64,000 nucleotides of DNA from Victivallales bacterium (GTDB lineage Bacteria > Verrucomicrobiota > Lentisphaeria > Victivallales > GWF2-38-69): the NCBI GenBank assembly GCA_963678745.2, contig CAXXMS010000004.1:16089-80088 (forward strand). The letters are read 5' to 3'. Made by a program: the position numbers and the translations under genes. The notes beneath the pieces were generated by a model that worked only from the letters and a program-made list of their open reading frames with translations, made no database searches and had not been told where the DNA came from. Positions 26,802 to 60,827 of the stretch are shown in pieces (the stretch's first letter is position 1; each line of letters opens with the position of its first letter).

Positions 26802-28065
26802 AGGTACGGCTCTTGAAAATCCTAAATCAAAACGCGGATGTTCAAAACATAAACGCAATGACTGTCCACAAATAGTTGTAGGAATGGTTTTTGATAATAA
26901 CGGTTTTGAAGTTGGACATAAAATTTTTGAAGGTAACCGAAATGATGCAACAACTATTCCCGATATGCTGTCAGAATTGAAAAATGCTGTTGGGCAGACA
27001 GATGATGTTCTTCTGGATACTTTAAAGCCAATTGTTATTCTTGACGGAGGGATTGCAACAAAAAAGAATTTGCTTTTGCTAAAATCTGAAGGATTCAGTT
27101 ATCTTGTAAATGATAGTCGCCGTGGAAGAAAAAAGTATAAGGATGAATTTTTAGCTGATGAGAAAACATTTACAGCTATTTCGGGAAGAGAAGATAAAAC
27201 AAATGTTCTTGTAAAACTCATTTCAGATCCTTTTAATGAACAAAATGGTACAGAAGACAATATTGTGCTATGCAAGAGCTCCGCACGCCGGGAGAAAGAA
27301 TATGCAATATGCTCAAAAATGGAGGAACGTTTTGTTGCCGGTCTTGAAAAAATCAAAGCGGGCATTGAAAAAAAAGGTGGTGTAAAAACTCCGGAAATTA
27401 TTCAAAGGCGAATTGGTAAATTGCAAAAACAGTTTTCCAGGGCCGCAAAATACTATAATGTAGAACTCAAAAAAACAGAAGATAAAAATGTACTGAACTG
27501 GACTTTGGATGATGAAAAATATGGAATTGATGATGAACTGTTTGGATGCTATGTAATAAGAACCGACAGAAAGGAATATGATGAAAATGAAATCTGGAAT
27601 CTTTATATGACACTTACAAAAGCGGAGGACGGATTTAGAATGTTAAAGTCAAATCTCGGAATCAGACCGAACTTCCATAGAATTGAAGATAGGGTGGATG
27701 CTCATGTTTTTATTACAGTTCTGGCTTATCATTTACTGCACTTCATTATGTACAAATTCAAACAGCGTGACGATCATAGAAGCTGGCCGACAATCAGAAG
27801 GATATTGTCTACACATTCGTATTCCACAATTAAAGTACCAACAAATTCAAATCAAATACATAGAATCAGAAAAGCAGGCTTGCCTGATGAAACCCAGAAA
27901 GATATTTACAGATATCTTGGCATTGACTGGAAAAACCTGCCCAAATCTCATGTGGTACTCAACTGCGTGAAAAAATAATTCTTGCTCATTGAAAACTTTT
28001 TGTCGTGCCTTAATTTTTCGGTTGTTGACTATCAGGGAGTTACAAATCAAGGTGCGAAACTCGGG
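26802..28065 (+). mobile_element. IS1634-like element, C-terminal half (partner half at 60031-61072)
   Basis: Starts exactly at the left end of IS copy 1. The outer terminus ...GGTGCGAAACTCGGG (~28065) resembles the outer terminus of the other half, ...TATGCGAAAGATGGG (~61072). The outer coordinate is approximate. Confidence 0.7.
26803..27978 (+). pseudogene. IS1634-family transposase, C-terminal ~390 codons
   Basis: The frame of ORF 26884..27978 is open back to 26803 (GTALENPKSKRGCSKHKRNDCPQIVVGMVFDNNGFEVGHKIFEGNRNDATT...). The C-terminal block reads FGCYVIRTDRKEYDENEIWNLYMTLTKAEDGFRMLKSNLGIRPNFHRIEDRVDAHVFITVLAYHL. Confidence 0.85.
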
Positions 28066-28386
28066 CTAAATATAAGTTATGTGGATTTCGATTTAAATAA
28101 AAAAAAGAATTTTAATATATAGTTGTTTAGAGCAAGAGGAATATTATACCTAAAATTAATTGGTTATAGAAAAAATCAAGAAATTATCGAGGTTACCTCT
28201 AGCAAAATAAACCAAAAACAAAAATACCTCCGGTATATTTCATATTTAAAAGTCCCTGCATTGATAATTATGTTTTCTTTTCCCAAAAAGATAGTAACTT
28301 ATAACCGACAAATAAGAGAAAGTAACAGTAACTAATAGATTTGTTTTACAGCAATCTCAATATTAAAACTCATAGTTGAGGTTAAA

Positions 28387-29193
28387 ATGAAAAATTTAAA
28401 AATATTCGTAACAAATGACGACGGTATACGATCTCCCGGAATTTATGCGGCAGTACAGGCAGTTAAACATTTGGGAGAAATAATAATAGCAGCCCCTTCA
28501 ACTCAACAAACAGCTATGGGGCGAAGTTTAAAAGGCAATAAGAATGCAGTTTTTAAGACAGTAAAATTTGAAATAGATGAACAACACTTTGAGGCTTATG
28601 AATGTGAATGCTCTCCAGCAGTTGTGGTAAAACACAGCATGGCTGTTCTTTTTCAAAAAGAAAAACCTGATTTAGTTGTTTCAGGAATTAATTATGGAGA
28701 AAACATAGGCGCTACAATTACAAGTTCAGGTACAGTTGGCGCGGCCTTAGAAGGAGCAACATATGGAATACCCTCAATTGCTATATCTAAAGAAACAGAC
28801 TTTGTTTCACACCATAAATACACAGAACAAAATTGGACAGGAACACAATATTTTCTTAGTCTGTTTGCAGAAAAAATGTTAAACCGTAAACTACCATCAG
28901 ATGTAGATCTATTAAAAATTGATGTTCCTGATGATGCAACATCAAAAACTCCCTGGCATATTACACGTCAGGCTAAAACTCCCTATTACTCAAGTATTAT
29001 GAAAAATCCTTCACTGAAAAGTAAACTTGGAGATTCAAAAATAACAATAGATCTTGATATTCCAACCCTTAAAACTAATACTGACATCTATAAGATTTAC
29101 GTAGAGAAAAACGTATCTGTAACTCCTATAAGTATAGATCTAACATCCAGAGCAAATTTCAATGAATTGTACAATTTATTAAACGAGGTTTAA
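28387..29193 (+). CDS. surE: 5'/3'-nucleotidase SurE
   Basis: MKNLKIFVTNDDGIRSPGI and SGINYGENIGATITSSGTVGAALEG are canonical SurE motifs. Confidence 0.9.
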   Translation: MKNLKIFVTNDDGIRSPGIYAAVQAVKHLGEIIIAAPSTQQTAMGRSLKGNKNAVFKTVKFEIDEQHFEAYECECSPAVVVKHSMAVLFQKEKPDLVVSGINYGENIGATITSSGTVGAALEGATYGIPSIAISKETDFVSHHKYTEQNWTGTQYFLSLFAEKMLNRKLPSDVDLLKIDVPDDATSKTPWHITRQAKTPYYSSIMKNPSLKSKLGDSKITIDLDIPTLKTNTDIYKIYVEKNVSVTPISIDLTSRANFNELYNLLNEV

Positions 29194-29197
29194 AGCA

Positions 29198-30160
29198 ATG
29201 CTGAAAAATGTTTTAACTTTAGGTCCTGCCAGCAGTAAACAAAATATTATCAGCGCTTTATTATCAGTTGCTGACCGTTTTAGATTAAACACATCGCATA
29301 TAACGGTGAATGAATTATCTGAATGGCTATCAAGGATAGAAAAAGTATTTACTGCATCTGAGAAATTTATCCCTGTTGTTATTGACCTGCAGGGTTCAAA
29401 AATGCGAATAGGGAAATATCAGCCCGTAGACACCATACCTGAACATATTACGCTATCATTTAAAGAAACTTCATTATCTCCGGAAGTTATACCTGTTCCG
29501 CATGAAGCTCTTTTTAAGTTCTTAAATGAAGGAGACACTGTGTCTCTCAATGATGCAAGAATCACACTTAAAATTACTGAAGTCAACATTAATAGCGCTA
29601 AAGCTATCACTATAAAAAATGGACCTCTTTCATCAAATAAAGGTATCAATAGAAAAGAACACCCTATCCCATTTCATGAACTTGCTTCAAAAGACAGCAA
29701 AATGATAAGAGCTGCTAAAAAATATAATTTTACAGAATTTGCATTTTCATTTGCCTATAGCGGAAATGAAGCAGACAAGATCAGACCTTATACAGGCAAA
29801 CATAGAATAATAGCAAAAATAGAGCGTGCTGAAACTTTTGCCAACCTAGAATCAATAGATAAATGTTTTGATGAAATATGGCTATGTAGAGGAGATCTTG
29901 GCGCTCAAGTAGGAATTTTCAACCTTGGAAAATTACAAAAAACTTTTATTCAGAAAATCAATTCATTAAATAAAAATTGTTTCCTTGCAGGACAGGTACT
30001 TGAACACATGACCTCTTTCCCTGAACCTACAAGATCTGAAATCGTTCATCTTTTTGATACGGAACAAAATGGCTTTAAAGGTTTCGTGTTATCTGATGAA
30101 ACAGCTATAGGAAAAAATATACCTTCGATAGTAGATTTTCTTGAAACATACAAAGGATAG
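29198..30160 (+). CDS. pyruvate kinase-like protein, barrel (A/B) domains only, no C-terminal domain
   Basis: 320 aa with TLGPAS, RLNTSH, DLQGSKMRIG, IAKIERAE, CRGDLGAQVG, AGQVLEHM, PTRSEIVHLFD and LSDETAIGK, which parallel pyruvate kinase motifs in order. The protein ends where the PK C-domain would begin. Confidence 0.6.
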   Translation: MLKNVLTLGPASSKQNIISALLSVADRFRLNTSHITVNELSEWLSRIEKVFTASEKFIPVVIDLQGSKMRIGKYQPVDTIPEHITLSFKETSLSPEVIPVPHEALFKFLNEGDTVSLNDARITLKITEVNINSAKAITIKNGPLSSNKGINRKEHPIPFHELASKDSKMIRAAKKYNFTEFAFSFAYSGNEADKIRPYTGKHRIIAKIERAETFANLESIDKCFDEIWLCRGDLGAQVGIFNLGKLQKTFIQKINSLNKNCFLAGQVLEHMTSFPEPTRSEIVHLFDTEQNGFKGFVLSDETAIGKNIPSIVDFLETYKG

Positions 30161-30285
30161 AAAAGTAAAAGCTCTTAATAATCAAAAATTTAAATACAGA
30201 AAACACTTACAATTAACATTGTAATTTCTTAATTTTAACAGATAATATAAAGATTATTAAAAATAATATAGAACAGGAGAATAAC

Positions 30286-30636
30286 GTGAAAATAATTAAT
30301 CTTGAAAATATACCAAAAGTAAAAGCTGAAATGCCGGGAGCTAAAAATGTTTTAAAACAGGTTCCTGTAGGAATTTCAGATGAAACACCAAATTTTTCGT
30401 TCAGAGTCTTCACAATAGAGCCTGATGGACATACACCATACCACATCCATCCATTTGAACATATTAATTATGTTATAGATGGAACAGGCTACCTAGTAAC
30501 AGAATCAGGAGAAAAAAAGGATATTAAAAAAGGCGATTTTGCACTGGTTTTACCAAATGAAAAGCATCAATATAGAAACAAATCTAAAGATAAGAATCTT
30601 GTAATGATTTGTGCTGTACCCAAGGAATACGAATAA
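30286..30636 (+). CDS. cupin-domain protein
   Basis: 116 aa with GHTPYHIHPFEHINYVIDG...G.....P....H.Y.N, the two-motif cupin pattern. Confidence 0.7.
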   Translation: MKIINLENIPKVKAEMPGAKNVLKQVPVGISDETPNFSFRVFTIEPDGHTPYHIHPFEHINYVIDGTGYLVTESGEKKDIKKGDFALVLPNEKHQYRNKSKDKNLVMICAVPKEYE

Positions 30637-30720
30637 TCTATAATTTATCGTATTATCAATTATTAACTCAAAACTGAAGTTTCCAGTTTTGACTTTAACC
30701 TTACCATTTTTGTATACATT

Positions 30721-32070
30721 ATGAAGAAATTTTTTAAAAAACTTAACACAAAATCCCAACAGAACAACAACTTTATTGTTATCGTAAGAATAATAATATG
30801 CTTGATTGTACTAGGGGCTGGCATAATTGCATTCATCGGTTTAAGTTCAATAAAACCTAAACCCAAAGAAAAGGACAGTGACTACCTGATCAAAACACTA
30901 ATTACAGTACCGGTAAAAAAGGAAAATATTAGTGATATTGTTGTAGGCTACGGAACAGCTGAACCGACAGATGAGATTAATGTAAAATCACAGATCAGCG
31001 GTAAGGTTATATATATTATGCCTAACCTTGAAGATGGAATATTAGTCGATAAAAATACTATTTTGGCAAAAATAGAGAAAACTGACTACGAAGTTATACT
31101 TAATAAAGTGGTAGCGGATATAAAAGCATATAAAGCAAAACTTGCTGTTCTGAAACAGGAAATTATTGATAATAAAGAAATTTATAAAATATTGGAGAAT
31201 AAACTAAACCTTGAAGAAGCCAGCTTTAACAGAAAGAAAAGGCTGTATGAAAAACAAGCAGTTTCCGCACAGGTTTTTGAAGACTCAGAACAAGCATACA
31301 TCGGCATGAAGCAAACATGCCTGAATATGAAACGGGATATTACTAAAGCTGAGTTGGAAATTGACTCTATTACAGCAAACATTGAAAGATCAGAAGCAGA
31401 AAAAAAACAGGCTGAACTGGATATTTCAAGATGCGAGATAAAAAGTCCTATAAAAGGCAGATTGGAAAATGTTGCTATAGAGAAAAATGAATATATTAGC
31501 AAAGGACAACAACTTTTTAATGTAGCAGATGACAGTACTCTTATCATTCCTGTCCCTCTAGATACACGTGACATTTCTTCAATAATCACGAGAATTTCGG
31601 TAAAAACCAATGGTTATAAACACTGGTTCACTTACGACAAAAATACACCTGTAAAAATCATGTGGACAGAAAACCCGGAAAAATGTATATGGGATGGAAA
31701 AATAGTCAGAATAGAAAAGTTTGACCCGGAAACAAGAACAGTAGTAATTGCAGTAAAAGCATCAAAATTTATAGGAAAAGAGAGAAACAAACTGCCACTT
31801 GTTGCAGGCATGTACTGTCAGGTTGATTTTACCGGTAAAGAATTAAAAAATGTTGTCCGCATACCTTGGTCGGCCCTTCAGCTTAATGGACATGTATATG
31901 TAGTTGATAAAAATAACACCGTGCATGAAAAAGATGTTAATATTTTAAGTTCAAGACAAGACAGAGTAATTATTTCATCCGGATTAGAAACAGGAGAAAA
32001 GGTAATAACTCAGCGAATACCTTACGGAGTAGTAAACGGCTCAAAAGTTAAAACTGTTACTGAACAATAG
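30721..32070 (+). CDS. efflux RND transporter periplasmic adaptor (MFP/HlyD family)
   Basis: N-terminal TM segment, long coiled-coil hairpin (residues ~130-235), a lipoyl-like motif (IKSPIKGRLENV) and a beta-barrel C-terminus. The stop lies 3 nt upstream of the RND pump start. Confidence 0.8.
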   Translation: MKKFFKKLNTKSQQNNNFIVIVRIIICLIVLGAGIIAFIGLSSIKPKPKEKDSDYLIKTLITVPVKKENISDIVVGYGTAEPTDEINVKSQISGKVIYIMPNLEDGILVDKNTILAKIEKTDYEVILNKVVADIKAYKAKLAVLKQEIIDNKEIYKILENKLNLEEASFNRKKRLYEKQAVSAQVFEDSEQAYIGMKQTCLNMKRDITKAELEIDSITANIERSEAEKKQAELDISRCEIKSPIKGRLENVAIEKNEYISKGQQLFNVADDSTLIIPVPLDTRDISSIITRISVKTNGYKHWFTYDKNTPVKIMWTENPEKCIWDGKIVRIEKFDPETRTVVIAVKASKFIGKERNKLPLVAGMYCQVDFTGKELKNVVRIPWSALQLNGHVYVVDKNNTVHEKDVNILSSRQDRVIISSGLETGEKVITQRIPYGVVNGSKVKTVTEQ

Positions 32071-32073
32071 ATT

Positions 32074-35000
32074 ATGATAAAAAATATAATAAAGAATTTT
32101 TTAAAAAACCCGGTTCTGGCAAATATCCTCATGCTTTTAATATTGATAGGAGGAACTATTTCAGGAAGCTTTATGATAAGAGAAATATTTCCGGAGTTTT
32201 CACTTGATAAAATAAGCGTAAGTGTTGCCTATCCCGGTGCTGATCCTGAGGAGGTAGAAGAAGGAATCTGTCTAAAACTGGAAGAAGCGCTTAACGGAAT
32301 TGAAGGCATAAAAGAGATCACAATAACGGCGCAGGAAGGAGTAGGTTCAGCTACTATAGAATGTCAGGATGGGGTAGATGTTTCAAAGGTCAAAGATAAT
32401 GTTGAAACAGAAGTTAACTCAATTACAACCTTTCCAAAAGATTCAGAACCACCAATAATAAAAGAATTGACAATAAGAAAGCAGGTTCTTTTTATCGCGT
32501 TATGGGGAGATCTACCTGAAAGACAATTGAAAAGTACAGCAAAAGGACTTGAGCAGGAAATATTAGCTCTGGATGGAATAAGCCAGGTTGATTTACTGGG
32601 AATTCGTGAAGATGAAATATCAATAGAAATCCCAGAAGAAATTTTAAGGAAGTATAACATTACATTTAGCGGTGTAGCCAACTCTGTAAGTAAAAACGGT
32701 ATGAACCTTCCCGCAGGTATAATTAGAAACGGTTCAGAAGATATTCGATTAAGAGTAATCGGAAGGAAATATAATGCCAAGTCCTACCAGGATATACCTG
32801 TTATAACTAAAAAAGACGGTACAATAATAACATTAGGAAAAATAGCAAAAATCAAAGATACCTTTAATGAAGATAACGAAAGTATATTGAGATTTAATGG
32901 TAAACCATGTGTTATGATTGCCATCTATAAAACAGGAAAAGAAGATTCGATTCAAATAACAAAGACTATTGAATCTTTTCTTAAGGGAAAAAGAAAAATA
33001 ATATCTCCTAAACTTCATTTGACTGAATGCTTTGATCTTTCAAGAATTATTAATGACAGACTACAGATGTTAATAGATAACGGAATTATCGGACTTATTC
33101 TGGTAATTTTAATATTATGGCTGTTCCTTGATATCAGATTGAGTTTCTGGGTTGCAATGGGAATCCCGATTTCAATTGCCGGCGCTTTGATTATAATGTC
33201 ATTCTTCGGATGTTCAATGAACATGATCACAATGTTTGGCCTAATCATGGTACTGGGGCTAATTGTTGATGATGCGATAGTTGTAGGAGAATCAATATAT
33301 TCAAAAAGAATAGCCGGTGATTCCTGTAATGATGCGGCAGTTAACGGCACAGCTGAAGTAGCCCTTCCTGTTGTTGCGGCAGTAACAACAACTGTTGTTG
33401 CTTTTCTACCTCTCTTTTTTGTTGGGGGAGTAATGGGTAAATTCATTGGTCAAATACCTATCCCTGTTGTTGCGGCACTGTCTGTTTCACTGATTGAAGG
33501 ATTATTTATTCTTCCTGTTCATCTAAGGCATCTTCCAAAGAATATAGGCAAACCTTCTTTTCAGGTTCCATATTTAAGCAAAGCAAGACTCTTTGTTGCG
33601 GATGGACTTAATGTTGTTATAGAAAAAGTTTACGGTCCTGCTATAGAAAAGATTTTACATTGGAGATATGTAGCACTGTCAATTAGCATTTCTGTTTTGC
33701 TTATAATTGCCGGATTAGTTGGCGGAAGCATTATTAAATTCGTATTCTTTCCAAAAATTGATGATGATTTCATAAGAGCAAAAGTTACATTGGCACCTGG
33801 AACTCCGTTGAAAAACACAGAACTCATAGCAAATAAAATACTTGACTCATGGAATCAGCTTTCCGATGAATATTATAGAAAAACAGGTAAACAGCTAACT
33901 ATGGCTGCATTTTCTATGATCGGAACATCTGCAGGTTGGAAATCTACCCCAAGCAGTAATGTACTGGAAATTATGGTAGAATTACTTCCTTCTGAAGAAC
34001 GAAACATATATTATACTAAATTAGTAGATGACTGGCAAAAAAGAGTAGGTAATATTCCAGGAGCAATTGCTACGAAGTTTGGAAACCTTCAGCACGGCCC
34101 TGGAGGAGAACCAATTGAAGTAGAATTATTCTCAAACAATCAGAATGAACTGATAAAAGCGTCAGATGCACTTGTTGCAAAGCTTAACACTATTGATGGT
34201 GTTTTTGATGCTCAAACTGATTATCTGGCAGGTGAAAAAGAATTTATTATCTCACTTAAGCCAAATGCATATCAGCTTGGCTTAACTCTAAACGACCTTG
34301 CAAGCCATGTCAGAGAAGGTTTTTATGGAAATGAAGCATTACGCATACAGAGAGAAAGAGATGATGTTAAAGTAAAAATCAGATATCCAAAAGATGATAG
34401 AAAATCTATTGGATATTTCAAAAGCCTGAGAATAACAACTCCCAGTGGCGAGAAAGTGCCTTTCCTAAGCATAGCCAATTTAGAAATAGTAGAAGGCCAA
34501 AATGTAATTTATAGAAAGGACAGAAAACGTGTTTTAGTAGTAACTGCTGATGTTAACAATAATATAGCAAATGCAGAAAATATTTTATCTGACCTGAAAG
34601 AAAACTTTCTTCCTAAATTAACTAACAAGTACGAAGTTCGTTATACAATCGAGGGCCAGTCAAAAGAAAAAAGCAGTACTCTTGATGCATTAAAGATTGG
34701 CCTACCGCTTGCGTTATTCGGTATTTATTTTATTATTGCGTCAATATTCCGCTCATATATTCAACCAATAGTAATTATGACAACAATTCCTTTTGGTTTA
34801 ATAGGAGCTGTAATAGGCCATTTCATTTTTGGTCTTCCACTAACAATAATGAGTATTTTTGGGATGGTGGCACTTGCCGGAATTGTTGTCAACGATGCAA
34901 TTGTCTTAATTGAAGGCGTTAACGAAAGACTTGGAAACGGTATGCCCCTGCTTACAGCCCTCAGAGAAGGTGGAAAAAGAAGATTCAGAGCAATATTGCT

Positions 35001-35268
35001 CACAACACTTACTACTTTTTTTGGTTTAATGCCTTTAATTCTTGAAAAAAGTATGCAGGCCCAGGTACTCATTCCTATGGCTATTTCAATTGCTTTTGGT
35101 GTTCTGTTTGCAACAGTCGTCACATTGATAATTATCCCATGCATGATTGCAATACTAAATGATATAAGGCGTATTCTATTTTCTATATGGAATTTAAGAT
35201 ATCCATCAAGAGAAGAAGTTGAACCAAGATATAATCCTCCAAAAACTAACACCACAAACATAGTGTAG
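32074..35268 (+). CDS. RND-family efflux permease (AcrB/CzcA superfamily)
   Basis: 1064 aa with a 12-TM, two-large-loop architecture and conserved TM4/TM10 regions (GLIVDDAIVVGESI; GIVVNDAIVLIEGV). Confidence 0.9.
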   Translation: MIKNIIKNFLKNPVLANILMLLILIGGTISGSFMIREIFPEFSLDKISVSVAYPGADPEEVEEGICLKLEEALNGIEGIKEITITAQEGVGSATIECQDGVDVSKVKDNVETEVNSITTFPKDSEPPIIKELTIRKQVLFIALWGDLPERQLKSTAKGLEQEILALDGISQVDLLGIREDEISIEIPEEILRKYNITFSGVANSVSKNGMNLPAGIIRNGSEDIRLRVIGRKYNAKSYQDIPVITKKDGTIITLGKIAKIKDTFNEDNESILRFNGKPCVMIAIYKTGKEDSIQITKTIESFLKGKRKIISPKLHLTECFDLSRIINDRLQMLIDNGIIGLILVILILWLFLDIRLSFWVAMGIPISIAGALIIMSFFGCSMNMITMFGLIMVLGLIVDDAIVVGESIYSKRIAGDSCNDAAVNGTAEVALPVVAAVTTTVVAFLPLFFVGGVMGKFIGQIPIPVVAALSVSLIEGLFILPVHLRHLPKNIGKPSFQVPYLSKARLFVADGLNVVIEKVYGPAIEKILHWRYVALSISISVLLIIAGLVGGSIIKFVFFPKIDDDFIRAKVTLAPGTPLKNTELIANKILDSWNQLSDEYYRKTGKQLTMAAFSMIGTSAGWKSTPSSNVLEIMVELLPSEERNIYYTKLVDDWQKRVGNIPGAIATKFGNLQHGPGGEPIEVELFSNNQNELIKASDALVAKLNTIDGVFDAQTDYLAGEKEFIISLKPNAYQLGLTLNDLASHVREGFYGNEALRIQRERDDVKVKIRYPKDDRKSIGYFKSLRITTPSGEKVPFLSIANLEIVEGQNVIYRKDRKRVLVVTADVNNNIANAENILSDLKENFLPKLTNKYEVRYTIEGQSKEKSSTLDALKIGLPLALFGIYFIIASIFRSYIQPIVIMTTIPFGLIGAVIGHFIFGLPLTIMSIFGMVALAGIVVNDAIVLIEGVNERLGNGMPLLTALREGGKRRFRAILLTTLTTFFGLMPLILEKSMQAQVLIPMAISIAFGVLFATVVTLIIIPCMIAILNDIRRILFSIWNLRYPSREEVEPRYNPPKTNTTNIV

Positions 35269-35274
35269 AGAATA

Positions 35275-35544
35275 ATGATAGACAATGACAAAATCAGGGT
35301 TTTTACTGAGTTTGGTTTTGGAAATATTAGTTTCATTAATACTGAGCTCGAATTTCCGGATGGTAACGAGCTCAGAAAACCTGGTTTCATAAAAATGAAA
35401 TTCCAGGGAATATATTTTAGGTTATGGATAAAAAATAAAGTTTTTATTATTTCCACAAAAAACGGAATTGTAATACAAACCAAGCCAAAGAATAAATTCA
35501 AACTGCTTTTTGGTATTATGGGGACTAAAAGAATAGAAAAATAA
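35275..35544 (+). CDS. hypothetical protein (89 aa)
   Basis: The ORF is tightly packed between the RND pump and the acetyltransferase. I recognise no motifs. Confidence 0.35.
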   Translation: MIDNDKIRVFTEFGFGNISFINTELEFPDGNELRKPGFIKMKFQGIYFRLWIKNKVFIISTKNGIVIQTKPKNKFKLLFGIMGTKRIEK

Positions 35545-35546
35545 AT

Positions 35547-36119
35547 ATGTTAACTGAAAAACATAAAATGCTTAAAGGTGAACTATACGATGCCTCAGAC
35601 CCGGTCTTGGCTGATGAACGCGCAAAAACACGCAATTTGCTTCATAAGCTAAACGTATCAGATTACGGGAATAAAGAAAAATACACAAAGATAATCCAAA
35701 AACTCTTTCCTAATGCTAATAGCGATCTTTGTATAGAACCTCCATTTTACTGTGATTATGGTTATAATATTTTTGCAGGAGAAAAAGTTTTCTTTAATTT
35801 CAATTGCACTGTTCTTGATGTTATGCCTGTCAAGATTGGAAACAATGTTTTATTTGGACCAAATGTTCAAATTTATACAGCAACTCACCCTATGAATCAT
35901 ATTGAAAGAAAGAAGTGGCTGGAATCAGCCAAACCAATAACAATTGGAGATGATTGCTGGATTGGCGGAAATGTAGTTATCTGTCCGGGAATAACAATAG
36001 GACCCCGAACTGTTATTGGAGCAGGAAGTGTTGTAACAAAAAACATCCAATCAGATGTTTTCGCTGCAGGAAATCCGTGTAAAATAATTAGAACAATACA
36101 ACCTTCTAATAAAAATTAA
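35547..36119 (+). CDS. maltose/galactoside O-acetyltransferase family (hexapeptide repeat)
   Basis: N-terminal Mac domain (KMLKGELYDASDPVLADERAKTRNLLHKLN) followed by left-handed beta-helix repeats (IGDDCWIGGNVVICPGITIGPRTVIGAGSVV). Confidence 0.85.
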   Translation: MLTEKHKMLKGELYDASDPVLADERAKTRNLLHKLNVSDYGNKEKYTKIIQKLFPNANSDLCIEPPFYCDYGYNIFAGEKVFFNFNCTVLDVMPVKIGNNVLFGPNVQIYTATHPMNHIERKKWLESAKPITIGDDCWIGGNVVICPGITIGPRTVIGAGSVVTKNIQSDVFAAGNPCKIIRTIQPSNKN

Positions 36120-49971: not shown

Positions 49972-49991
49972 AATTCTGACTTACAAAAGTC

Positions 49992-51747: not shown

Positions 51748-51986
51748 ACTGAACCCAACTTTCCCACTATAATTGAAATTTTTCTAAGACAGAATAACTT
51801 TGAAATATACAATCTAAGAAACAACGTTTTTAAGCCTTAAAATTAAAGGCACCATTGTTATGTTTTATAAATATAAATATATTAAATATAAAAACAAAAG
51901 TTTTTTGAAGATAAAAAACTAAACATATAGAATATTATATCACATTATAACAAAAAAAGCAGTAGCTTTGAAAGGAATCAACCGGC

Positions 51987-52718
51987 ATGAAAGCTTTGTT
52001 AAAAGGCCGTTTTCTTGAAGATATCAAACCTTTACTTGAAAAGAAAGGTATTGAGCTGGTTCCTGAAACAACCCAAAACCCTGATATAATTATCACACAT
52101 GGAGGAGATGGTTCATTATTGGGACTTGAAAGGATGTATCCCGGAATACCGAAGCTTCCTATTAGAGATACAAGAACTTCGTCCCTATGCCCTAAACATT
52201 CTCATGAAAAAATAATAGACGATCTGATAAACGGCAAGCTAAAAAAATTTGAATTAATGAAGCTTCATGGCAAAACAGCGCAAAACAGTATTTTAGGAAT
52301 GAATGATATTTTCATACATAATTCAAACAAAGTAAGTGCAATCAGGTATAAAGTCTGGATAGATGATAAACTTTATTTAAAAGAAGTAGCAAGTGACTGT
52401 GTCGGTATAGCAACAGCACATGGCAGTACTGCATATTACAGAAGTATTACAAGATGTATTTTTAAAGCAGGGATAGGTTTAGCATTTAGTAATTCAAGAG
52501 AGCATGTTGATCATATAGTCCTACCTGAAGACTCAATAATAAAAATACAGTTATTAAGAGGGCCTGCTTTTATTGTAACAGATAATGATCCCAAAACTAT
52601 TAGTTTCAATACAGATGATATATTAACTATCTCAAAATCTCCGGCAAAAGCAAAGATTTATGGACTGGAAACTTTTATGTGTCGCGAATGCCGTAAACTA
52701 AGACATATAAAAATTTAA
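51987..52718 (+). CDS. nadK: NAD kinase (short form)
   Basis: DIIITHGGDGSLLG (GGDG motif), NDIFIHN and GIATAHGSTAYYRS (G-S-T-A-Y motif), in 243 aa. Confidence 0.65.
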   Translation: MKALLKGRFLEDIKPLLEKKGIELVPETTQNPDIIITHGGDGSLLGLERMYPGIPKLPIRDTRTSSLCPKHSHEKIIDDLINGKLKKFELMKLHGKTAQNSILGMNDIFIHNSNKVSAIRYKVWIDDKLYLKEVASDCVGIATAHGSTAYYRSITRCIFKAGIGLAFSNSREHVDHIVLPEDSIIKIQLLRGPAFIVTDNDPKTISFNTDDILTISKSPAKAKIYGLETFMCRECRKLRHIKI

Positions 52719-52755
52719 AACTGAACTTGCCAAATCTTTTCATTTTAAGCTAACA

Positions 52756-54063
52756 ATGAATCATTATAAAGAAAAATTAGACAGACTTTTTAATCTGCAG
52801 TTTGTAGGTATAAAAATGGGTCTTGAACAAATCAAACTGCTGCTTGCAAGGCTTGGGAATCCCGAGAAAACACTAAAATTTATCCACATTGCAGGTACAA
52901 ACGGTAAAGGTTCTGTATGTTCAACTTTAGCAACTGCGTTAAAAGGAAATAATTTTAAGGTTGGATTTTACAGTTCCCCTCACTTAGTATCAATTAGAGA
53001 AAGGTTCAGAATTAATGGAAAAGGAATATCAGAAGAAGAATTAATTGAATTAATTGATTATATCTGGCCTACCGTAGAAACAATGTATTCTGAAAATATA
53101 AAACTTACTTTTTTTGAAGTAACTGTTTCTATTGCAATTCTTTATTTCGCAAAGCATAAGTGTGATTTAGTTTTATGGGAAACCGGCTTAGGCGGCAGAT
53201 TGGACAGTACAAACACAGTAATTCCTATTGTTACAGCAATCACAGGAATAGGCATAGACCATGAAAATTTTTTAGGCAACACAGAAGAAGAAATAGCAGG
53301 AGAAAAAGCCGGTATAATCAAAGAGAACATACCAGTTTTCATCGGTAAAATGTCAAATAGAGCCAAAACAGTTATCGAAGAAATAGCTAATAAAAAAAAT
53401 GCCCCCATTTACAATGTAGATGAAAATATCCTTACGTTTGAAGAGATTTCTAATAATGAAAATTTAGGCGGATGGCAATTTCATGAAACTAACTCTGACC
53501 TAAAAGAAAACTTCTTATTACCATTATCAGGAGCGGCACAACCGGATAATATGAAGCTGTCATACAGTATCTTAAAATATTTAGCAGACAAATATCATTT
53601 TAATTTGAACTCAGCTTTAAGAAATATTAAATACTTAAAATGGTATGGCCGAGTTCAATTATTAGCCGATGGAAAAATACTTGATGGTGCTCACAACCCG
53701 CAAGGCATAAAATCCTTAGTAAAAACATTAAAAAATTCATATGGCAAACAAAAATTCACAGTAATTTTCGGGTGTTTAAAAGATAAAAATCCCGCTGAAG
53801 CAATTAAAATACTTTCAGGCATTACATCAAAGTTTGTTTTTATTCCAATTAATTCGCCAAGACCATGTTTAGACCCTCTGACTATTGCAAAAATAGCTGG
53901 AGAAATAGATAAAAACATTAAGCTTTCAACAGCAAAATCATTTAAAGAAGCATTAAGTTTATGTGCAAAAGAGAAACAAAACACACTAATAACCGGTTCT
54001 CTTTACCTTGCAGGAGAAGCACTTCTTGAGTATTATAATAAAGAAGAAATCATTAATATTTAA
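52756..54063 (+). CDS. folC: bifunctional folylpolyglutamate synthase/dihydrofolate synthase
   Basis: IHIAGTNGKGSVCS P-loop, SPHLVSIRERF, LWETGLGGRLDSTN, DGAHNPQG and a Mur-ligase C-terminal domain. Confidence 0.9.
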   Translation: MNHYKEKLDRLFNLQFVGIKMGLEQIKLLLARLGNPEKTLKFIHIAGTNGKGSVCSTLATALKGNNFKVGFYSSPHLVSIRERFRINGKGISEEELIELIDYIWPTVETMYSENIKLTFFEVTVSIAILYFAKHKCDLVLWETGLGGRLDSTNTVIPIVTAITGIGIDHENFLGNTEEEIAGEKAGIIKENIPVFIGKMSNRAKTVIEEIANKKNAPIYNVDENILTFEEISNNENLGGWQFHETNSDLKENFLLPLSGAAQPDNMKLSYSILKYLADKYHFNLNSALRNIKYLKWYGRVQLLADGKILDGAHNPQGIKSLVKTLKNSYGKQKFTVIFGCLKDKNPAEAIKILSGITSKFVFIPINSPRPCLDPLTIAKIAGEIDKNIKLSTAKSFKEALSLCAKEKQNTLITGSLYLAGEALLEYYNKEEIINI

Positions 54064-54083
54064 TTTATAGAGGAAAACTAGCT

Positions 54084-54662
54084 ATGAATAGTAATTATAA
54101 AAAACAGAATTATTCCAGATTGTCATATTATTTTTTAACCTATTTTATTGCATTCTTATCTATTTTCTTTTTAGCCTCTTTTTCATTAGTAGCAGAACCA
54201 CCTACTTCTTCGAGCGATACTGGAATAAAAACTACACCTACAGAGACAGCTGATTCAATTAAAAAGGACTTGAAGAATACACCATCTGTAAAAGTAACAG
54301 ATACAGAAGCTAAAAAAGCCTCTGATACAGCTAAAAATGTAGAAGAAAAAACGAATGAAGATTTAGCTAAAAAGGAAGCCGAATTTTTAAAACAAATAAA
54401 AGAACTTGAAAATCAAAGACGTAAATTATCCTTTGAGATTTATCAACTCAGAGTAAAACTTATTAAAGAAGATCCTGAGCTACAGTCTCTTCAAAGATCA
54501 ATTATGGACATGCACAGAAAAATGGCTTCTAAACTAAATGAAAAAAACAGTATCAAAGTTCTTTTGGACAAAGCCACACAAATTGACTCTCAGATAGTCG
54601 AAACAATTAATAAAAACAAAAATCTAGACTCTAAAGAAAAAAATAATAATGAGTCAAAATAA
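54084..54662 (+). CDS. hypothetical membrane-anchored coiled-coil protein
   Basis: N-terminal TM segment, a Ser/Thr/Lys-rich linker and a heptad-like region (EAEFLKQIKELENQRRKLSFEIYQLRVKLIKE). Confidence 0.5.
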   Translation: MNSNYKKQNYSRLSYYFLTYFIAFLSIFFLASFSLVAEPPTSSSDTGIKTTPTETADSIKKDLKNTPSVKVTDTEAKKASDTAKNVEEKTNEDLAKKEAEFLKQIKELENQRRKLSFEIYQLRVKLIKEDPELQSLQRSIMDMHRKMASKLNEKNSIKVLLDKATQIDSQIVETINKNKNLDSKEKNNNESK

Positions 54663-54972
54663 CTTCATGAAAAGAATATTGCTTTTATAAAATTTTTTGT
54701 TAAAACACCTTTTGAAAGCATATTGTTTTTTTATTGATATATTCTATAATTAGATTTAACAGAAAAGTATTATTTTTTACAATCTGCTCGGCAAATTTTA
54801 CACTTGCTTGCATATAACATCAAGTAAAAGTTTTTAGAAAATTTAAGCAATTATTTGAGCTAGATTGCTACAAAAAATCAATACATAAAAATACCTTCGG
54901 TATAAAAAACCTTATATCAAAATTTTAATTATTTTAAATAAATATTTAATTACAAAAAGTAAAGGACCATCC

Positions 54973-55365
54973 ATGAAACTATGGTTAATAGCTATTTCTA
55001 TATTATTGTTAACATTTACCGCTTATGCTGAAGATGCCAAAGAAGCAGAAGTTCAAAGCGAAAACGTGGCACAGGAGAGAATAGATGTTCCACATGCATT
55101 ATTAAGAGGCGTAACGAACTTAGGAACATTTTGGCTTGAAATTCCAAGAGAAATAGTTGTTGAAGAAAACTATAATCCTGTATATGGTGTAGTTGTGGGC
55201 GCAGTAAAAGGAACATATTATGCAGGAAAAAGACTTGTATTTAGCGTTTTCGATATAGCTTTATTAGGCTTTACCGGACCAAGCGGGTACAGCACTGAAT
55301 TTCCAGAATATGTCTGGGATGCTCAATGGAATCCATGGCCTAAAAAAGAAGAAGAACCTGAATAA
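54973..55365 (+). CDS. small secreted protein, possibly exosortase-system-associated (TIGR04073-like)
   Basis: Signal peptide, then LLRGVTNLGTFWLEIPRE...G...G...G..R...G..D. This resembles what I recall of TIGR04073, but it is unverified. Confidence 0.45.
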   Translation: MKLWLIAISILLLTFTAYAEDAKEAEVQSENVAQERIDVPHALLRGVTNLGTFWLEIPREIVVEENYNPVYGVVVGAVKGTYYAGKRLVFSVFDIALLGFTGPSGYSTEFPEYVWDAQWNPWPKKEEEPE

Positions 55366-55378
55366 ACACCCATATTTA

Positions 55379-56873
55379 ATTTTTTTACTTTTATCAATAG
55401 CAGTTTTTTTAAACTATACATTCCTTATTTTTGAGAGTTAAAAAATTACCCGGCACACTGAAAAATGATATCTCTAATATAATTTATCAGTGACTTGCCT
55501 TTTGAAGAGCAAATATCCATAAAATTAAAACTCTCATAATATTCGTTTTTAATTTTTCTTCTTATATCAGCAAAAGCATATGAATTTGCTCTTGCAGTTT
55601 TAAATTTTCTAACAGGAGCCTTCTCCTGTTTTATAGTGTATATCCATGCTGCGGTCATGGCAATGCAGCACAGATCAAAATGATTTTCTACAGAATTCCT
55701 TTTTCTTGCCTGATTATCCAGAGCACCGAGTTCATGTTTAAGTTCTTTAAAACCGCTTTCTATTTTCCATCTTGCAGAATAATATTCTATCATCTGCTGA
55801 GCCGTCAGGCTGCAGTCGGTAGATACAATTGGAAAGAACCATCCGTTTTTATAGTGAACAAGAACAACTTTAACTTTGGTTTTAAATCCTTTGTGCATAC
55901 ATAAAAATTCTGAATATTCACATTTTCTGCTTTTGCCGTAAATGAAGAAATAATCTTCTTTTTTATCAAGAGTCGCTGCCAGCTTCGATAACTTTGGTAA
56001 TCGAATACCGTAAATTTTCTTTCTCCCTCTTTTTTTTGCTTTACTTTCAGGCGGAAAATCATAGAGAGCTGAATCAATTCTTAAACGAGTAAGGATATGC
56101 ATTGATTCTTTATAGGAGTTTAAAACTTTTGTCAATGACTTATTACCAAACCAACTGTCAGTAACTACCAGCATAGGAATAGAAAACTGTTCATACAGCT
56201 CATTAATCAGTTCTCCGGCAATCTCTATCTTAGTTTTAAATTCTTTTTTATCTACAGATTTTTTAAGCCGGTAAACTTTTTGTTTTACGGGCAGACATGC
56301 CCAGCGTCCATGGATAAACTTTTGTATCCCGAGAACAACACGGCAATGTCCAAAAAGATATTTAGAGCTGTTCAGTTTAGCCGCATGATCGTAATGAGTA
56401 TCGCAGTTTGCAATTTTCTTTCCTGTCTTTCCATATGTTGTATCATCAAGAGCTACAAGAAGTCTGCCGGATGTTTGGATATCATCACCAAGTATTGTAA
56501 AAAGTTTTTTCCATACTAAAGCAAGTTTAAGTTTTCCTGACTGCAGAAAACCGTAATATTTTTTTCTCGATATCTTATTAGACAGCATCATTATTGCAAA
56601 CAGACGATAAATTGCTGAAATACATTTACTGCCTTCGCTGATAATCAAACCGGTTATAATGGTTTTAAAAATAATTCTTCTGTCTTTTCTCGGAATTACT
56701 GTTGCAACTTCATCTATTAATGTGCTAAATTTACAATTACTGAACATGTTGTATTACTCCTTTTTTTTAATTTTGATAATAGAGTAATATAGCATGTTCA
56801 GCCACCTGACTGCAATTTGTAAGCTTTTTACAATAAACATGTTATGTCTTAAAACTTGACAAAAGTAAACAAA
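55379..56873 (-). mobile_element. IS4-superfamily (IS701-like) insertion sequence, apparently intact
   Basis: Terminal IRs are TTTTTTTACTTTTATCAA (55379) and the reverse complement of CTTGACAAAAGTAAACAAA (56855-56873), around a single transposase ORF. It starts 14 nt after the stop of the preceding gene. Confidence 0.7.
55446..56747 (-). CDS. DDE transposase (IS4 superfamily, IS701-like)
   Basis: 433 aa with LVALDDTTYGKTGKKI, VVTDSWFGNKSL and YSARWKIESGFKELKHELG. Confidence 0.8.
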   Translation of the reverse strand: MFSNCKFSTLIDEVATVIPRKDRRIIFKTIITGLIISEGSKCISAIYRLFAIMMLSNKISRKKYYGFLQSGKLKLALVWKKLFTILGDDIQTSGRLLVALDDTTYGKTGKKIANCDTHYDHAAKLNSSKYLFGHCRVVLGIQKFIHGRWACLPVKQKVYRLKKSVDKKEFKTKIEIAGELINELYEQFSIPMLVVTDSWFGNKSLTKVLNSYKESMHILTRLRIDSALYDFPPESKAKKRGRKKIYGIRLPKLSKLAATLDKKEDYFFIYGKSRKCEYSEFLCMHKGFKTKVKVVLVHYKNGWFFPIVSTDCSLTAQQMIEYYSARWKIESGFKELKHELGALDNQARKRNSVENHFDLCCIAMTAAWIYTIKQEKAPVRKFKTARANSYAFADIRRKIKNEYYESFNFMDICSSKGKSLINYIRDIIFQCAG

Positions 56874-57586
56874 GCTCACTGAATAGTACTGCCAAAGACC
56901 TCAAAAAAATCATCTTTTCTCTTTCGAGGGGCTTAAAACAACTGAAAACGCTGATACTGGGCATCTCACAAAAAAGATGAGAAAAAATTTTTCAAAAATC
57001 ACCATTGCTATAGATTTAAAAAAATTGCATTTTTTTTAATTCTAAAGTTTTCTGATGATGATTAACAGAAGTATAGTGGATCTGAGAAAATCAAGTTTTC
57101 AAAGAACACCCCAAAAAAAACGGGGAAACTTTAGTTTTTAAAAAAACTGCTATTTTTTTTGATTTTTACTTTATAGACATACAAAAAAATAATATTAATA
57201 CTATAATTATTAATAACATAGAGAAGATAGAGAATTTTACCTCCCCCAAACTTAAATAAAGTATTTTGCTAACAAAGTGTATTTATTCCGTTACGGGCGT
57301 ATACACGGTTAGTTTTTTAAGCTTTACAGAAAAGGCATCTCAAGATAAATTTATTTGTCTTGAAAAATTAAAAACTTAATCAAAGGATGCCCTAATGATA
57401 ACCTGAATTATGCTTAAAGATTCAACAGACAATTTGCTGTAATAGATTTTTTTCTAAACGTATAGAAGGTTTTTTAATTTTATAAATAAAGAAAGAAAAG
57501 AAGGACTTGAATTAACGTGAGGTACTCGCAACGATTTGGTTTTCGAGATTTTATATTTCCCTTCTAACCTAAAATCTTAATTGAAA

Positions 57587-60030
57587 TTCAGGACTCCTGA
57601 TCTGGATAAATCGTCACAAGAGCGTGTATTCATTCTAAACCCTATATAATAAATGAGTTATAAAAAATCTACTGCAAAATAGTTTTAGAGCTTTGAGGAA
57701 AATAAGAAAGACACCTTAATTATATATTTCACGATAAAATATAAACAAGAAAGAGTCTTTCTTATGCAGGAACTATTACCTATATTACCTGAAGGTGCAA
57801 GTCAAATATCTCAAAATCTATCAGTTATTCAGGAGAATGATAAATGGACATACTTTCATAGTTATCTTCCTGTTTTTATACATAAAGCAGACGATAAGAA
57901 CTCTTTCCGAATGATAAGTTCTGCATTAATAGCCTCCGGCACCTGCCGTAATGTTGATATTCAAAGGACCTTTAAAGTTTCTCCCCGAAGCGTAATTCGT
58001 AATTGCAAAAAATATAATGAACTTGGCAGTGATGGTTTTATTAATATCAGTGGAAAAGGAAAACGCAAAGGAAAGGTGCTGACAGAGGCAAAGATAAAAA
58101 AGGCTGAAGAGTTATTATCGCTTGGTTTTACCCGCAGAGAAACAGCCGGAAAAATAGGAGTTGGTTATTCCGCACTATCTAAAGCAGTTCAGGATGGACG
58201 TATAAACTATGTTATATCTTCTGAAGATAGTATTTCAGATAAATCAGAACGCAGTGCTGCAGATACTAATGTAGCGGAAATATTTGGTGTAGCATGCACC
58301 AATGTTTTAGATCGGACGTTGTGTGCATTTGGTCTTAACGGGATTACGGGAAGTACTTTTCAACGCTGTAATGATGTATCAAATGCGGGTGTACTTGCTG
58401 CCTTGCCTGCACTTGCAGCTAATGGACTTTATTATCACAGCGAAGAGTGTTTCGGAGAATTTAAAGGATACTATTCTGTTCTTCATGTATTAACACTTTT
58501 AGGATTCATGGCTCTCTGCCGAATAAAGACAGTAGAGAAACTTCGCTGGGAATCTCCCGGTGAATTTGGTAAACTTATCGGCTTAGACCGCATTCCTGAA
58601 GTAAAATGCCTGCGGAATAAACTTTCAGAGTTAAGCAGTAACGGAGCTTCAGAAAAATGGAGTGAAATTTTATGCAGAAAATGGATGGATGAAGAGCCTG
58701 ATTTATCAGGAGTACTTTATATTGACGGTCATGTAAGATTATACGGAGGAAAAGAAAAATTACCAAAGCAGTTTGTTTCCAGACAGAAACTCTGCCTCAA
58801 GGGAGTGATGGATTTCTGGGTAAACGACAAGCTTGGGCAGCCATTTTTTGTTATTCGAAAAGAAATAAATCCCGGAATGCTGGAAGTTTTAAGAAATGAT
58901 ATTGTTCCGCGTTTACTTGATGATGTTCCAAACCAGCCTACAAAAGAAATGCTTGAAGCTGATCCGTATCTGTACAGGTTTATTCTCGTCTTTGACAGAG
59001 AAGGATACAGCCCTGAATTTTTCAAGGATATGTGGGCAAAGCACAGGATTGCCTGTATCACATATCACAAATATCCCAAAGAGGACTGGGATAAATCTGA
59101 ATTCGAAGAAATTACAGTTGATTTAATCAGCGGAGAAAAAACTAATATGAAGCTTGCAGATCGCGGAACTTATATCGGAGATAAAAAGAAGGGATTATGG
59201 GTGCATGAAATAAGAAAACTTACAAAAAGCAATCACCAGACAAGTATAATAACAACTGCATTTTCGCTGCCCATTATGCTTACTGCAGTACTTATGTTTG
59301 CAAGATGGTGTCAGGAAAACTTCTTTAACTACATGATGAAACACTTTGCTATTGATTTACTTAGCGATTATTTAAAGAAGGACCTTGATGTCACCGAAAC
59401 GATAGTTTCTCCTCAGTGGAGAGCCCTTGATAAAAAAAGAAATTCTCTTACAGGAAAACTCAAAACCCGAAAAAGCAGATTCGCTGATTTCACGATTCAT
59501 CCAAAAGCTGAAAACGATTTAAAGAAATACAGAGAATGGGAAAAAGTAAAGACTGAATTAGCTGAAGAAATTATAGTAATTGAAAATGAGCTTGAGATAA
59601 AAAAAGAAGAGCAGAAAAATACACCGAAGCATATAAATGTGGAGGATTTGCCCGATGAGTATTCATTCAAAGCTCTGTCATCAAGCAAAAAACATTTAGT
59701 TGATACTGTTAGAATGATCGCATACAGGGCAGAAACTTCCATGGCTGCTGCAATTGCAGATAAATTCAAATCATTTGAGCAGGCAAGAGCTTTGCTGAGA
59801 GAAGTGTTTGTTACTGAAGCAGATTTAATTCCTGTAGAGGAAGAAAAAACTCTATATGTAAGAATTCATAACCTTCCAACAATTGCAATGGATAAAAATA
59901 TGGACTGCCTGCTGGATATCATAAACCAGGCAAATGTGAAGTTTCCTGGAACTAATATGCTGTTAAGGTATCAAAGGCTTGGAACAGGAAAATCATGCCA
60001 TCAGTAAGTGTTCCAAGTCAAGATCCCTGA
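57587..60030 (+). mobile_element. 2.4-kb unclassified IS, copy 2 (intact)
   Basis: Borders are defined by where identity with copy 1 starts and stops. The imperfect IRs are TCAGGACTCCTGATCTGGA and the reverse complement of TCCAAGTCAAGATCCCTGA. It has a single long ORF. Confidence 0.85.
57764..60007 (+). CDS. putative transposase, 747 aa, family not recognised
   Basis: HTH-like segments lie in the first 150 aa (RNVDIQRTFKVSPRSVIRNCKKY; FTRRETAGKIGVGYSALSKAV). Candidate DDE residues lie in LYIDGHVRLY, LVFDREGY and ARWCQENFFNYM. It is bounded by IRs and present in two copies. Confidence 0.7.
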   Translation: MQELLPILPEGASQISQNLSVIQENDKWTYFHSYLPVFIHKADDKNSFRMISSALIASGTCRNVDIQRTFKVSPRSVIRNCKKYNELGSDGFINISGKGKRKGKVLTEAKIKKAEELLSLGFTRRETAGKIGVGYSALSKAVQDGRINYVISSEDSISDKSERSAADTNVAEIFGVACTNVLDRTLCAFGLNGITGSTFQRCNDVSNAGVLAALPALAANGLYYHSEECFGEFKGYYSVLHVLTLLGFMALCRIKTVEKLRWESPGEFGKLIGLDRIPEVKCLRNKLSELSSNGASEKWSEILCRKWMDEEPDLSGVLYIDGHVRLYGGKEKLPKQFVSRQKLCLKGVMDFWVNDKLGQPFFVIRKEINPGMLEVLRNDIVPRLLDDVPNQPTKEMLEADPYLYRFILVFDREGYSPEFFKDMWAKHRIACITYHKYPKEDWDKSEFEEITVDLISGEKTNMKLADRGTYIGDKKKGLWVHEIRKLTKSNHQTSIITTAFSLPIMLTAVLMFARWCQENFFNYMMKHFAIDLLSDYLKKDLDVTETIVSPQWRALDKKRNSLTGKLKTRKSRFADFTIHPKAENDLKKYREWEKVKTELAEEIIVIENELEIKKEEQKNTPKHINVEDLPDEYSFKALSSSKKHLVDTVRMIAYRAETSMAAAIADKFKSFEQARALLREVFVTEADLIPVEEEKTLYVRIHNLPTIAMDKNMDCLLDIINQANVKFPGTNMLLRYQRLGTGKSCHQ

Positions 60031-60827
60031 CCTTCGAAATATGTATTGGTTAAATCATAAAGCAGAACTGTTCTCTCAAGATTGAAATATTTTCTTTCCT
60101 TGTATATAAGATGTTTTTTTATTTGATCCTTAAACTTAAAAAGTTTGTCACTTACCCTATAGTAGGAATCATCTCCTCCCTGCAGTATTTCAGAGCCGAG
60201 AAGTTCGGGAAGCGAAGTTGTTGAAATCCACTGGGCAAGTGCATGTTCGCTTAAAGGTTTTACCAGCCGGTTGATTACTGAAACAGCAGCACAGGCACAC
60301 TGTTTAGGATTAAATCCCAAAGTTTTAAGAAATTTTTCTATTTCAAGTTCATTCCAGGCATGTAAGGCTACAAGTTCTGCACCGAGTTCAGTATCATTAC
60401 AATGATCTATATTCTCGATTTCAACCCCATCTACAATTTCAGGTTTTTCTACATCTTCTTCTGTTTGAATGTTTGATTCTGCATTATCAGTATCTTTATT
60501 CTCTGTTTGTTTTACATTCGGCTTCCAGCCCCCCTTCAAATCAATAAGGCGCAAAATTCTGTCAATCCAGCTTTGTTCGGCTTGGGTATATTCAAATTCA
60601 AAAAGAGTATCGGTTTCATAATAGGTGTTATAAAGTTTGTGTTCTACCGCTTTAGCTATCGGTTTCCAGGATTTATCAGGTATTCTTGCTCTGCCCAGAG
60701 ATATTACTGTTCTGCTTCGACTGTGACCGAGGCTGTTGCGATAGGCTTCGATGAGCTGAAGTACTTCACCGCTTGGAGTTTTCTTAACCCTGAAATACAT
60801 TTTTACCTTTCTTTTATCTGCCGGCAA
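60031..60827 (-). pseudogene. IS1634-family transposase, N-terminal ~265 codons
   Basis: ORF-track entry 60018..60827. VKKTPSGEVLQLIEAYRNSLGHSRSRTVISLGR...RTVLLYDLTNTYFEG is the typical IS1634-family N-terminus. The last 4 codons (QGS*) are read-through into the IS end. Confidence 0.85.

Follow-up and report, generated by a model that had tools for sequence, protein, structure and literature searches.

A 64,000-nucleotide (nt) stretch of the genome of a Victivallales bacterium (assembly GCA_963678745.2, contig CAXXMS010000004.1, positions 16,089 to 80,088 of the forward strand; hereafter the window) carries two oppositely oriented copies of a 2.4-kb insertion sequence (IS) with a PF21804 transposase, for which the working name ISx is used here. 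Each copy lies directly against one half of an element of the IS1634 family, and the two halves are found today ~31-33 kb apart on opposite strands. In this arrangement the block between the ISx copies (28066-57587 together with the C-terminal half of the IS1634-like element) is inverted relative to its flanks. On balance we favour a history in which ISx inserted into the IS1634-like element and homologous recombination with a second, inverted ISx copy then flipped the segment. An earlier note, made from the letters of this DNA, had proposed a 31-kb flip bounded by inverted IS copies. The proposal is supported, and every check named beforehand that could be run came out in its favour.

The features that carry the argument are located as follows (positions of the window).

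20639-26801, minus strand: ISx copy 1, dead; pieces at 20639-21803, 23116-23345 and 25774-26801, with 20 nt of ISx gone
26802-28065, plus strand: C-terminal half of the IS1634-family element; coding to 27978, right terminus ...GTGCGAAACTCGGG at 28052-28065
28066-28069, plus strand: CTAA, member of the 4-bp target duplication made by the IS1634-like element
28066-57587, no strand assigned: segment between the ISx copies; 21 ordinary open reading frames (ORFs), one IS701-like element and, beside copy 2, 433 non-coding nt
57588-60030, plus strand: the intact ISx copy (copy 2), of 2,443 bp and with TCAGG...CCTGA ends
60031-61072, minus strand: N-terminal half of the IS1634-family element; coding from the ATG at 60800, left terminus CCCATCTTTCGCAT (reverse complement of 61059-61072, which as read is ATGCGAAAGATGGG)
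61073-61076, minus strand: TTAG as read on the plus strand and CTAA as read along the element, the other member of the 4-bp duplication

The split IS1634-family element

One open frame (...TNTYFEG/TALENPKS..., the slash marking the join) results when 26805-27978 is attached to the reverse complement of 60031-60827; its product has 647 amino acids (aa) counted from MYFRV, and the join region carries TTCGAAGGTACGG. The rebuilt protein matches the NCBIfam model for IS1634, NF033559, with 288.8 bits (cutoff 100), uninterrupted over residues 118-631 and across the join at residue 256, and PF01609 (DDE_Tnp_1) with 37.2 bits (cutoff 23). A transposase of this family split at the IS ends, and a continuous frame once the IS and one AGG are removed, had both been predicted from the letters, and both predictions hold. 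Intact 647-aa paralogs are present on other contigs (65 kb to 1 Mb) of evidently the same assembly. One of them (P0001) is identical to the rebuilt protein at 642 of 647 positions (99%), aligns without gaps and reads ...YFEGTALENP... uninterrupted over the join. At the protein level the search for intact copies, which had been put forward as a check, thus returns paralogs that are contiguous over the predicted AGG junction. The products of the window are on record together on one 84,347-bp contig (SurE P0155, N-half P0124, C-half P0141 and the 747-aa P0144). The N-half product is 260 aa long and ends with ...YFEGQGS by read-through into ISx, an end that occurs in one fragment only among the IS1634-like fragments of the assembly.

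Comparison at the DNA level was made with the closest intact relative fetched (L088, a 2,312-nt contig), which shows 83% aa and 79% nt identity to the rebuilt element. The alignment consists of a single high-scoring segment pair of 2,330 columns with no indel at the junction TATTTCGAAGGTACGG. It gives the rebuilt element a length of 2,303 bp and places the terminal CCC at 61072 (reverse complement) and the terminal GGG at 28065, confirming as true ends the sequences that the earlier note had taken for terminal inverted repeats after re-inversion. To these it adds a second target duplication, as the CTAA pair around the element becomes a direct repeat only after re-inversion; L088 itself is flanked by TTAA on both sides. 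The element ends being fixed independently by the alignment, a 4-bp flank match would occur by chance in ~1/256 of cases. Since the flanks read CTAA/CTAA after re-inversion, both halves stem from one insertion. An origin of the halves from different elements, which had been named as a counter-finding, is poorly compatible with the matching flanks.

The published family table gives lengths of 1,500-2,000 bp, termini starting with C and an AT-rich duplication of typically 5-6 bp for IS1634-family elements; the duplications of IS1634 and IS1549 vary from 8 to 514 bp (De Palmenaer et al. 2008, PMC2266710). Similar to these elements, the split element shows the transposase homology and DDE_Tnp_1 domain described above, a large transposase and CCC.../...GGG termini. 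In contrast to the 2008 table, its 2,303 bp lie above the range and its duplication has 4 bp (CTAA; TTAA in L088) instead of 5-6 bp. Judged by transposase homology it is a member of the IS1634 family, and the 4-bp duplication gives no ground for exclusion.

Other IS1634-like paralogs of the assembly (P0121-P0143) carry a frameshift in an A-run, KDQIKKH becoming KDQKKTS, which results in pairs of ~240-aa and 364-aa ORFs. These breaks reflect either recurrent homopolymer slippage or leftover sequencing error confined to repeats. Repeated targeting of one IS1634 site by ISx had been suspected from several N-fragments of ~240-260 aa and C-fragments of 364 aa and was rejected, the fragments being homopolymer frameshifts with one ISx read-through among them.

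The ISx copies and their family

Copy 2 has imperfect terminal inverted repeats of 18 nt and a transposase ORF at 57764-60007 (747 aa). Its true start is 57588; the earlier note had placed the left end at 57587, one base too far left, and the pairing of 57587 with 26802 is due to chance. The two copies align over three blocks (1166 + 238 + 1028 nt = 2,432 nt) at 99.9% identity, and the real differences number three, at IS positions 47 and 123 (both non-coding) and 1987 (I604T). Of the earlier description of two 2.4-kb copies, near-identity and inverted orientation stand, whereas the length does not apply to copy 1, which spans 6.2 kb with nested IS630 and IS66 elements. With 2.4-kb arms at such identity and a rebuilt ORF that matches intact paralogs across the join, chance is no issue for the arrangement as read from the sequence.

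The ISx transposase matches Pfam PF21804 (Transposase_29) over the full length of the profile (residues 175-737 against positions 1-559 of 562, E=6.5e-168). None of the NCBIfam models for IS families is matched at E<=1e-3, nor is any sequence in PDB, and the protein gave no match among plasmids. Homologs number in the thousands, mainly on metagenome contigs of ~2.5 kb; they are mostly unnamed and labelled hypothetical protein at NCBI. A literature search on PF21804 found no published description of element ends or target duplication. By means of an alignment of ISx homologs we fetched 80 loci from reference genomes and fixed the element ends in four multi-copy genomes, two of Desulfosarcina, one of Desulfatiglandales and one of Desulfofustis (loci L009-L074). 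There the relatives of ISx measure ~2.45 kb and have TCAG...CTGA ends throughout, and 30 of the 35 copies show a perfect 3-bp duplication; one Desulfosarcina metagenome-assembled genome holds at least 16 copies.

In the window the bases AGG at 26802-26804 beside copy 1 and CCT at 60031-60033 beside copy 2 are as first reported, and the reading of this pair as a 3-bp target duplication in inverted orientation is in line with the length found in the relatives. Given those duplications, the AGG/CCT pair is the expected trace of one ISx insertion. The 5 of 35 copies without duplication indicate that exchange of flanks is common in the ISx family. The assembly of the window contains at least 10 ISx copies or fragments. 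With terminal repeats, a fixed 3-bp duplication and multiple copies, ISx is by its sequence characteristics a bona fide IS outside the families modelled by NCBIfam. A Foldseek search with the ISx core gave a weak match to Tn5 transposase (E ~3e-3) from a poor AlphaFold model (predicted local distance difference test, pLDDT, of 61).

One ISx relative in Desulfatiglandales (L036, flanks at 2816-2823 / 5276-5283) sits between ...ACACAAGG and AGGTACAG, near the window target, in which GAAGG precedes the IS and AGGTACGG follows it. The target AAGG/AGGTAC was considered as the same IS1634 site and rejected, the insertion point not being in an IS1634 gene. The likeness is either coincidence or a weak preference for AAGGTAC.

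Strand composition and gene order in relatives

As the plain GC-skew profile tracks gene orientation, it was replaced by skews at third codon positions (GC3, AT3), split by gene strand. Read on the plus strand, C3 exceeds G3 in 19 of the 21 segment ORFs (the exceptions are the cupin, 0.000, and LptF/G, +0.011) and A3 exceeds T3 in 20. Pooled GC3 is -0.124 for plus-strand and -0.321 for minus-strand genes, pooled AT3 +0.100 and +0.148, respectively. Since genes on both strands show the same skew, the asymmetry of the segment is bound to the strand and not to transcription. Mean AT3 amounts to +0.110 in the segment compared to -0.027 in the nine flanking non-IS genes (Mann-Whitney P=2e-4), and GC3 of minus-strand genes alone to -0.34 inside compared to -0.03 outside (P=0.03). 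The contrast fits a recent re-orientation of the block. The GC-skew check that had been suggested for the flip therefore sets the segment apart from its flanks in the codon-position version.

The surE-coding strand (28387-55365) is C3/A3-rich in the window (r ~-0.22) and G3-rich in three relatives (L001-L003; +0.10 to +0.27). This opposite bias indicates an older change of replication orientation in the lineage, beyond the recent flip. All three relatives keep the gene order from surE to RND/RNase R, with SurE 84% and 69% identical in the closest of them. Scans of metagenomes gave 0 matches for the empty IS1634 site and 0 matches for the intact junction, and scans with Rfam and for tRNAs revealed nothing at the inversion junctions.

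The history of the rearrangement

As the sequence shows, the IS1634-like element (2,303 bp, CCC...GGG) inserted between the surE block and response-regulator/PAS genes with a 4-bp CTAA duplication, and ISx later entered its transposase gene at codon 256, producing the 3-bp AGG duplication. In the course of events that we favour, a crossover of the RecA type between this ISx and an oppositely oriented one ~31 kb away then led to the flip. The second ISx copy would have been without a duplication already before the flip, set between a truncated IS21 element and non-coding DNA, presumably through an earlier deletion or recombination at this copy. The flip would be recent relative to compositional drift, and the insertions of IS630 and IS66 into copy 1 could have occurred before or after it.

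Features characteristic of recombination are seen in the 2,432 aligned nt with 3 differences in inverted orientation and in the AGG/CCT pair, which is split between the copies and inverted. We favour recombination because the 2.4-kb near-identity and the at least 10 ISx copies offer ample substrate, because IS-flanked inversions are the rule in IS-rich genomes (PMC4888882), and because the structural hint for ISx, weak as it is, points to the cut-and-paste transposase Tn5, a likeness with which two copies by intramolecular transposition are not expected. Inversions between IS copies by recombination are well documented, for example for IS481 in Bordetella pertussis (same source). Similar to those, the window shows near-identical inverted ISs at both breakpoints with swapped flanks, all genes kept and an IS-rich genome. 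In contrast to the B. pertussis case, the IS belongs to an uncatalogued family (PF21804), the inversion is small (31 kb) and symmetry about origin and terminus is not shown here; moreover, the flip is deduced from strand composition and from an IS that serves by its split as a "reporter", instead of a comparison of strains.

Several observations weigh against this history. The reciprocal flanks (20638/57587) read, in IS orientation, AAT before the left inverted repeat (IRL) and ATA after the right inverted repeat (IRR), without a 3-bp duplication. ATA and AAT are not parts of one target. The IRR end of copy 1 cuts istA of the truncated IS21 element; the missing part of istA was sought on the other flank of copy 2 and is not there, this flank being the 433 nt of non-coding DNA. 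A clean history of two insertions and one crossover is thus insufficient, and at least one more event is needed. As the donor copy adjoins a truncated IS21 and lacks a duplication, both pathways call for some earlier deletion or recombination. The earlier note had likewise found no matching duplication at this flank pair and had assumed further rearrangement there, which the mismatch and the truncated neighbour corroborate. Upstream of surE, the genes of L001-L003 are unrelated, and none of these genomes places the genes of 61-64 kb beside surE, which makes the synteny comparison uninformative. The skew of the flanks derives from nine genes in a heavily scrambled region and is close to zero instead of mirroring that of the segment. 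The likeness to Tn5 goes back to the poor model and marginal Foldseek value given above, and the arrangement is known from one draft contig of one assembly. Finally, recombination and one-step intramolecular transposition are inseparable by sequence alone.

Replicative transposition is established for IS26 and for elements of the Tn3 family. One-step intramolecular replicative transposition in trans is the main and a serious rival to recombination; we consider this pathway somewhat unlikely. A single donor ISx, with the truncated IS21 on one side and the present 57587 flank on the other, would have attacked the IS1634-like element ~31 kb away; ISx would have been copied, the interval inverted, the IS1634-like element split and the 3-bp duplication left inverted, one per copy. 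This predicts the anatomy observed, namely inverted copies, an inverted interval and an AGG/CCT pair of which one triplet lies within the interval and the other beyond it, and it requires one event compared to two for recombination (insertion, then crossover). The mere 3 sites at which the ISx copies differ are in agreement with it, and the truncated IS21 beside the donor would be the expected remnant of an earlier event in cis (deletion) by a replicative IS. As a direct precedent, intramolecular replicative transposition in trans was described for IS26 and for Tn4401, which split ISSwi1 in pKPC-727 (He et al. 2015, PMC4471558): an inverted Tn4401 pair lies by inverted partial copies of ISSwi1 with an inverted 5-bp duplication. 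Both cases share two inverted element copies, each by half of another IS, and an inverted duplication. However, the donor's own duplication was also split in the Tn4401 case, whereas the donor flanks of ISx mismatch (ATA vs AAT), and the Tn4401 event took place on a plasmid while that of ISx is chromosomal. Replicative movement of ISx is, moreover, only putative, with the structural hint leaning weakly towards the cut-and-paste transposases of the Tn5 group; since copy 2 has neither the nested elements nor the 20-nt deletion, IS630, IS66 and this loss would all have to postdate the event. A variant with the ISx in IS1634 as donor and IS21 as target failed at 57587; the reversed roles of donor and target fit. 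That ISx constitutes an undescribed, replicatively moving IS family and that the locus arose by a one-step intramolecular event in trans is, taken together, quite unlikely in our estimation.

An assembly artefact or heterogeneity of the population, with one ISx inside an undivided IS1634-like element and an assembler that left the 2.4-kb repeat by the wrong exits, or with both orientations coexisting and one reported, is judged very unlikely. The many ISx copies of the assembly and the position of the contig as one of many in a draft speak for it, as do repeats being the usual points of assembler failure and the measurable rates at which inverted 2.4-kb repeats can flip. An artefact would, however, require two independent wrong joins, and copy 1 is individually marked by the nested IS630/IS66 and the 20-nt deletion. 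Full-length housekeeping ORFs compared to relatives and contigs of up to 1 Mb indicate a good assembly of long-read grade. The third-position composition of the segment also differs from that of the flanks, which a mis-join gives only if the true orientation is the reverse. It is scarcely credible that two separate IS1634-like copies, both struck by ISx at one position, supplied the halves and were later brought together, in which case the halves would not mark a single 31-kb inversion. At least 5 intact IS1634-like copies plus fragments exist in the genome, and two substitutions (S212, K237) are private to the N-half compared to none in the C-half. On the other side stand the CTAA/CTAA flanks upon re-inversion, in line with TTAA around L088, and the single fragment of the assembly with the ISx read-through ...YFEGQGS; ISx shows no strong target specificity for hitting the same codon twice, and the look-alike target in L036 lies outside any IS1634 gene. 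Recombination between inverted ISx copies stays our preferred explanation.

Further features of the window

Three mobile elements besides ISx and the IS1634-like element lie in copy 1 or in the segment, and a fourth adjoins copy 1.

19295-20638, minus strand: truncated IS21-family element; istB 19295-20059 complete, istA 20025-20638 with the C-terminal ~200 codons only
21804-23113, plus strand: IS630-family element nested in ISx copy 1; ORF 21832-23100, NF033545 (E=1.9e-61), Pfam DDE_3
23346-25773, minus strand: IS66-family element lying within ISx copy 1, with GTAAACG...CGCTTAC at its ends, Pfam and NCBIfam matches; tnpA 25324-25674, tnpB 24989-25327, tnpC 23408-24940
55396-57154, minus strand: IS701-like (DDE_5) element; transposase 55446-56747, perfect 18-nt terminal inverted repeats AATAGCAGTTTTTTTAAA

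The nested IS630-family element has a TA target duplication at 21802-03 and 23114-15. A second copy of it begins at ~63798 (63796-64000) and leaves the window; its visible 205 nt are 100% identical to the first copy, to which it stands in direct orientation. The IS66-family element is without an 8-bp duplication, and 20 nt of the host ISx are replaced (CTTAACTCTGAAAGTTTATT), an anatomy that suggests either a deletion beside the element or a crossover of two IS66 copies. Within the IS701-like element (site 57009-57168), a diverged additional copy of the repeat motif is located ~120 nt inward of the right end.

The 21 ordinary ORFs of the segment comprise surE, a pyruvate-kinase barrel, a cupin, MFP, an RND pump, an acetyltransferase, a lipase, NamZ, RNase R, LptF/G, aconitase, UPF0047, Sel1, UvrA, MIP, SIS-CBS, an NAD-kinase-like protein, FolC and three unknowns. 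The earlier count of about 25 housekeeping genes is therefore too high. Nor does the segment run from surE through folC: FolC is encoded at 52756-54063, and the last gene is the DDE_5/IS701-like transposase at 55446-56747 on the minus strand.

Near the left end of the window an origin-type operon is found on the minus strand (1425-4700), consisting of rpmH (~4560-4700), rnpA (4121-4519), yidD (3855-4133), yidC (2054-3853) and jag/KhpB (1425-1997). No dnaA adjoins it, and IS and intron debris follows directly to the right. The region 4897-20638 resembles a graveyard of mobile elements, with fragments of DDE transposases at 4897, 7590, 9237, 9736, 10156 and 14316, two group II intron reverse transcriptases (6251-7513 and 15339-16601) with Rfam intron domains, an IS630 fragment at 17559, a reverse transcriptase fragment at 18712 and the truncated IS21. 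The only ordinary genes there code for a nitroreductase and a POT transporter (11677-13741).

Conclusion

Inversions flanked by ISs have long been known, as have IS-in-IS "reporters". The rearrangement described here is a fresh instance of this well-known kind and changes no concept. The locus offers a clean, internally documented case of nested ISs that record the order of rearrangements, and its value is practical, not conceptual. As an only mildly novel by-product, the analysis provides for the PF21804 family, annotated as "hypothetical" at NCBI, the first description of ends and duplication that we found (~2.45 kb, TCAG...CTGA, 3 bp). If ISx did move replicatively and the locus arose in one step in trans, it would represent the first mechanistic footprint of a widespread, unannotated transposase family, and this family would be actively reshaping an IS-saturated uncultured genome beside an rpmH-rnpA-yidC origin-type cluster. 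The locus is also a warning that the order of genes along this contig is recent and may be unstable.

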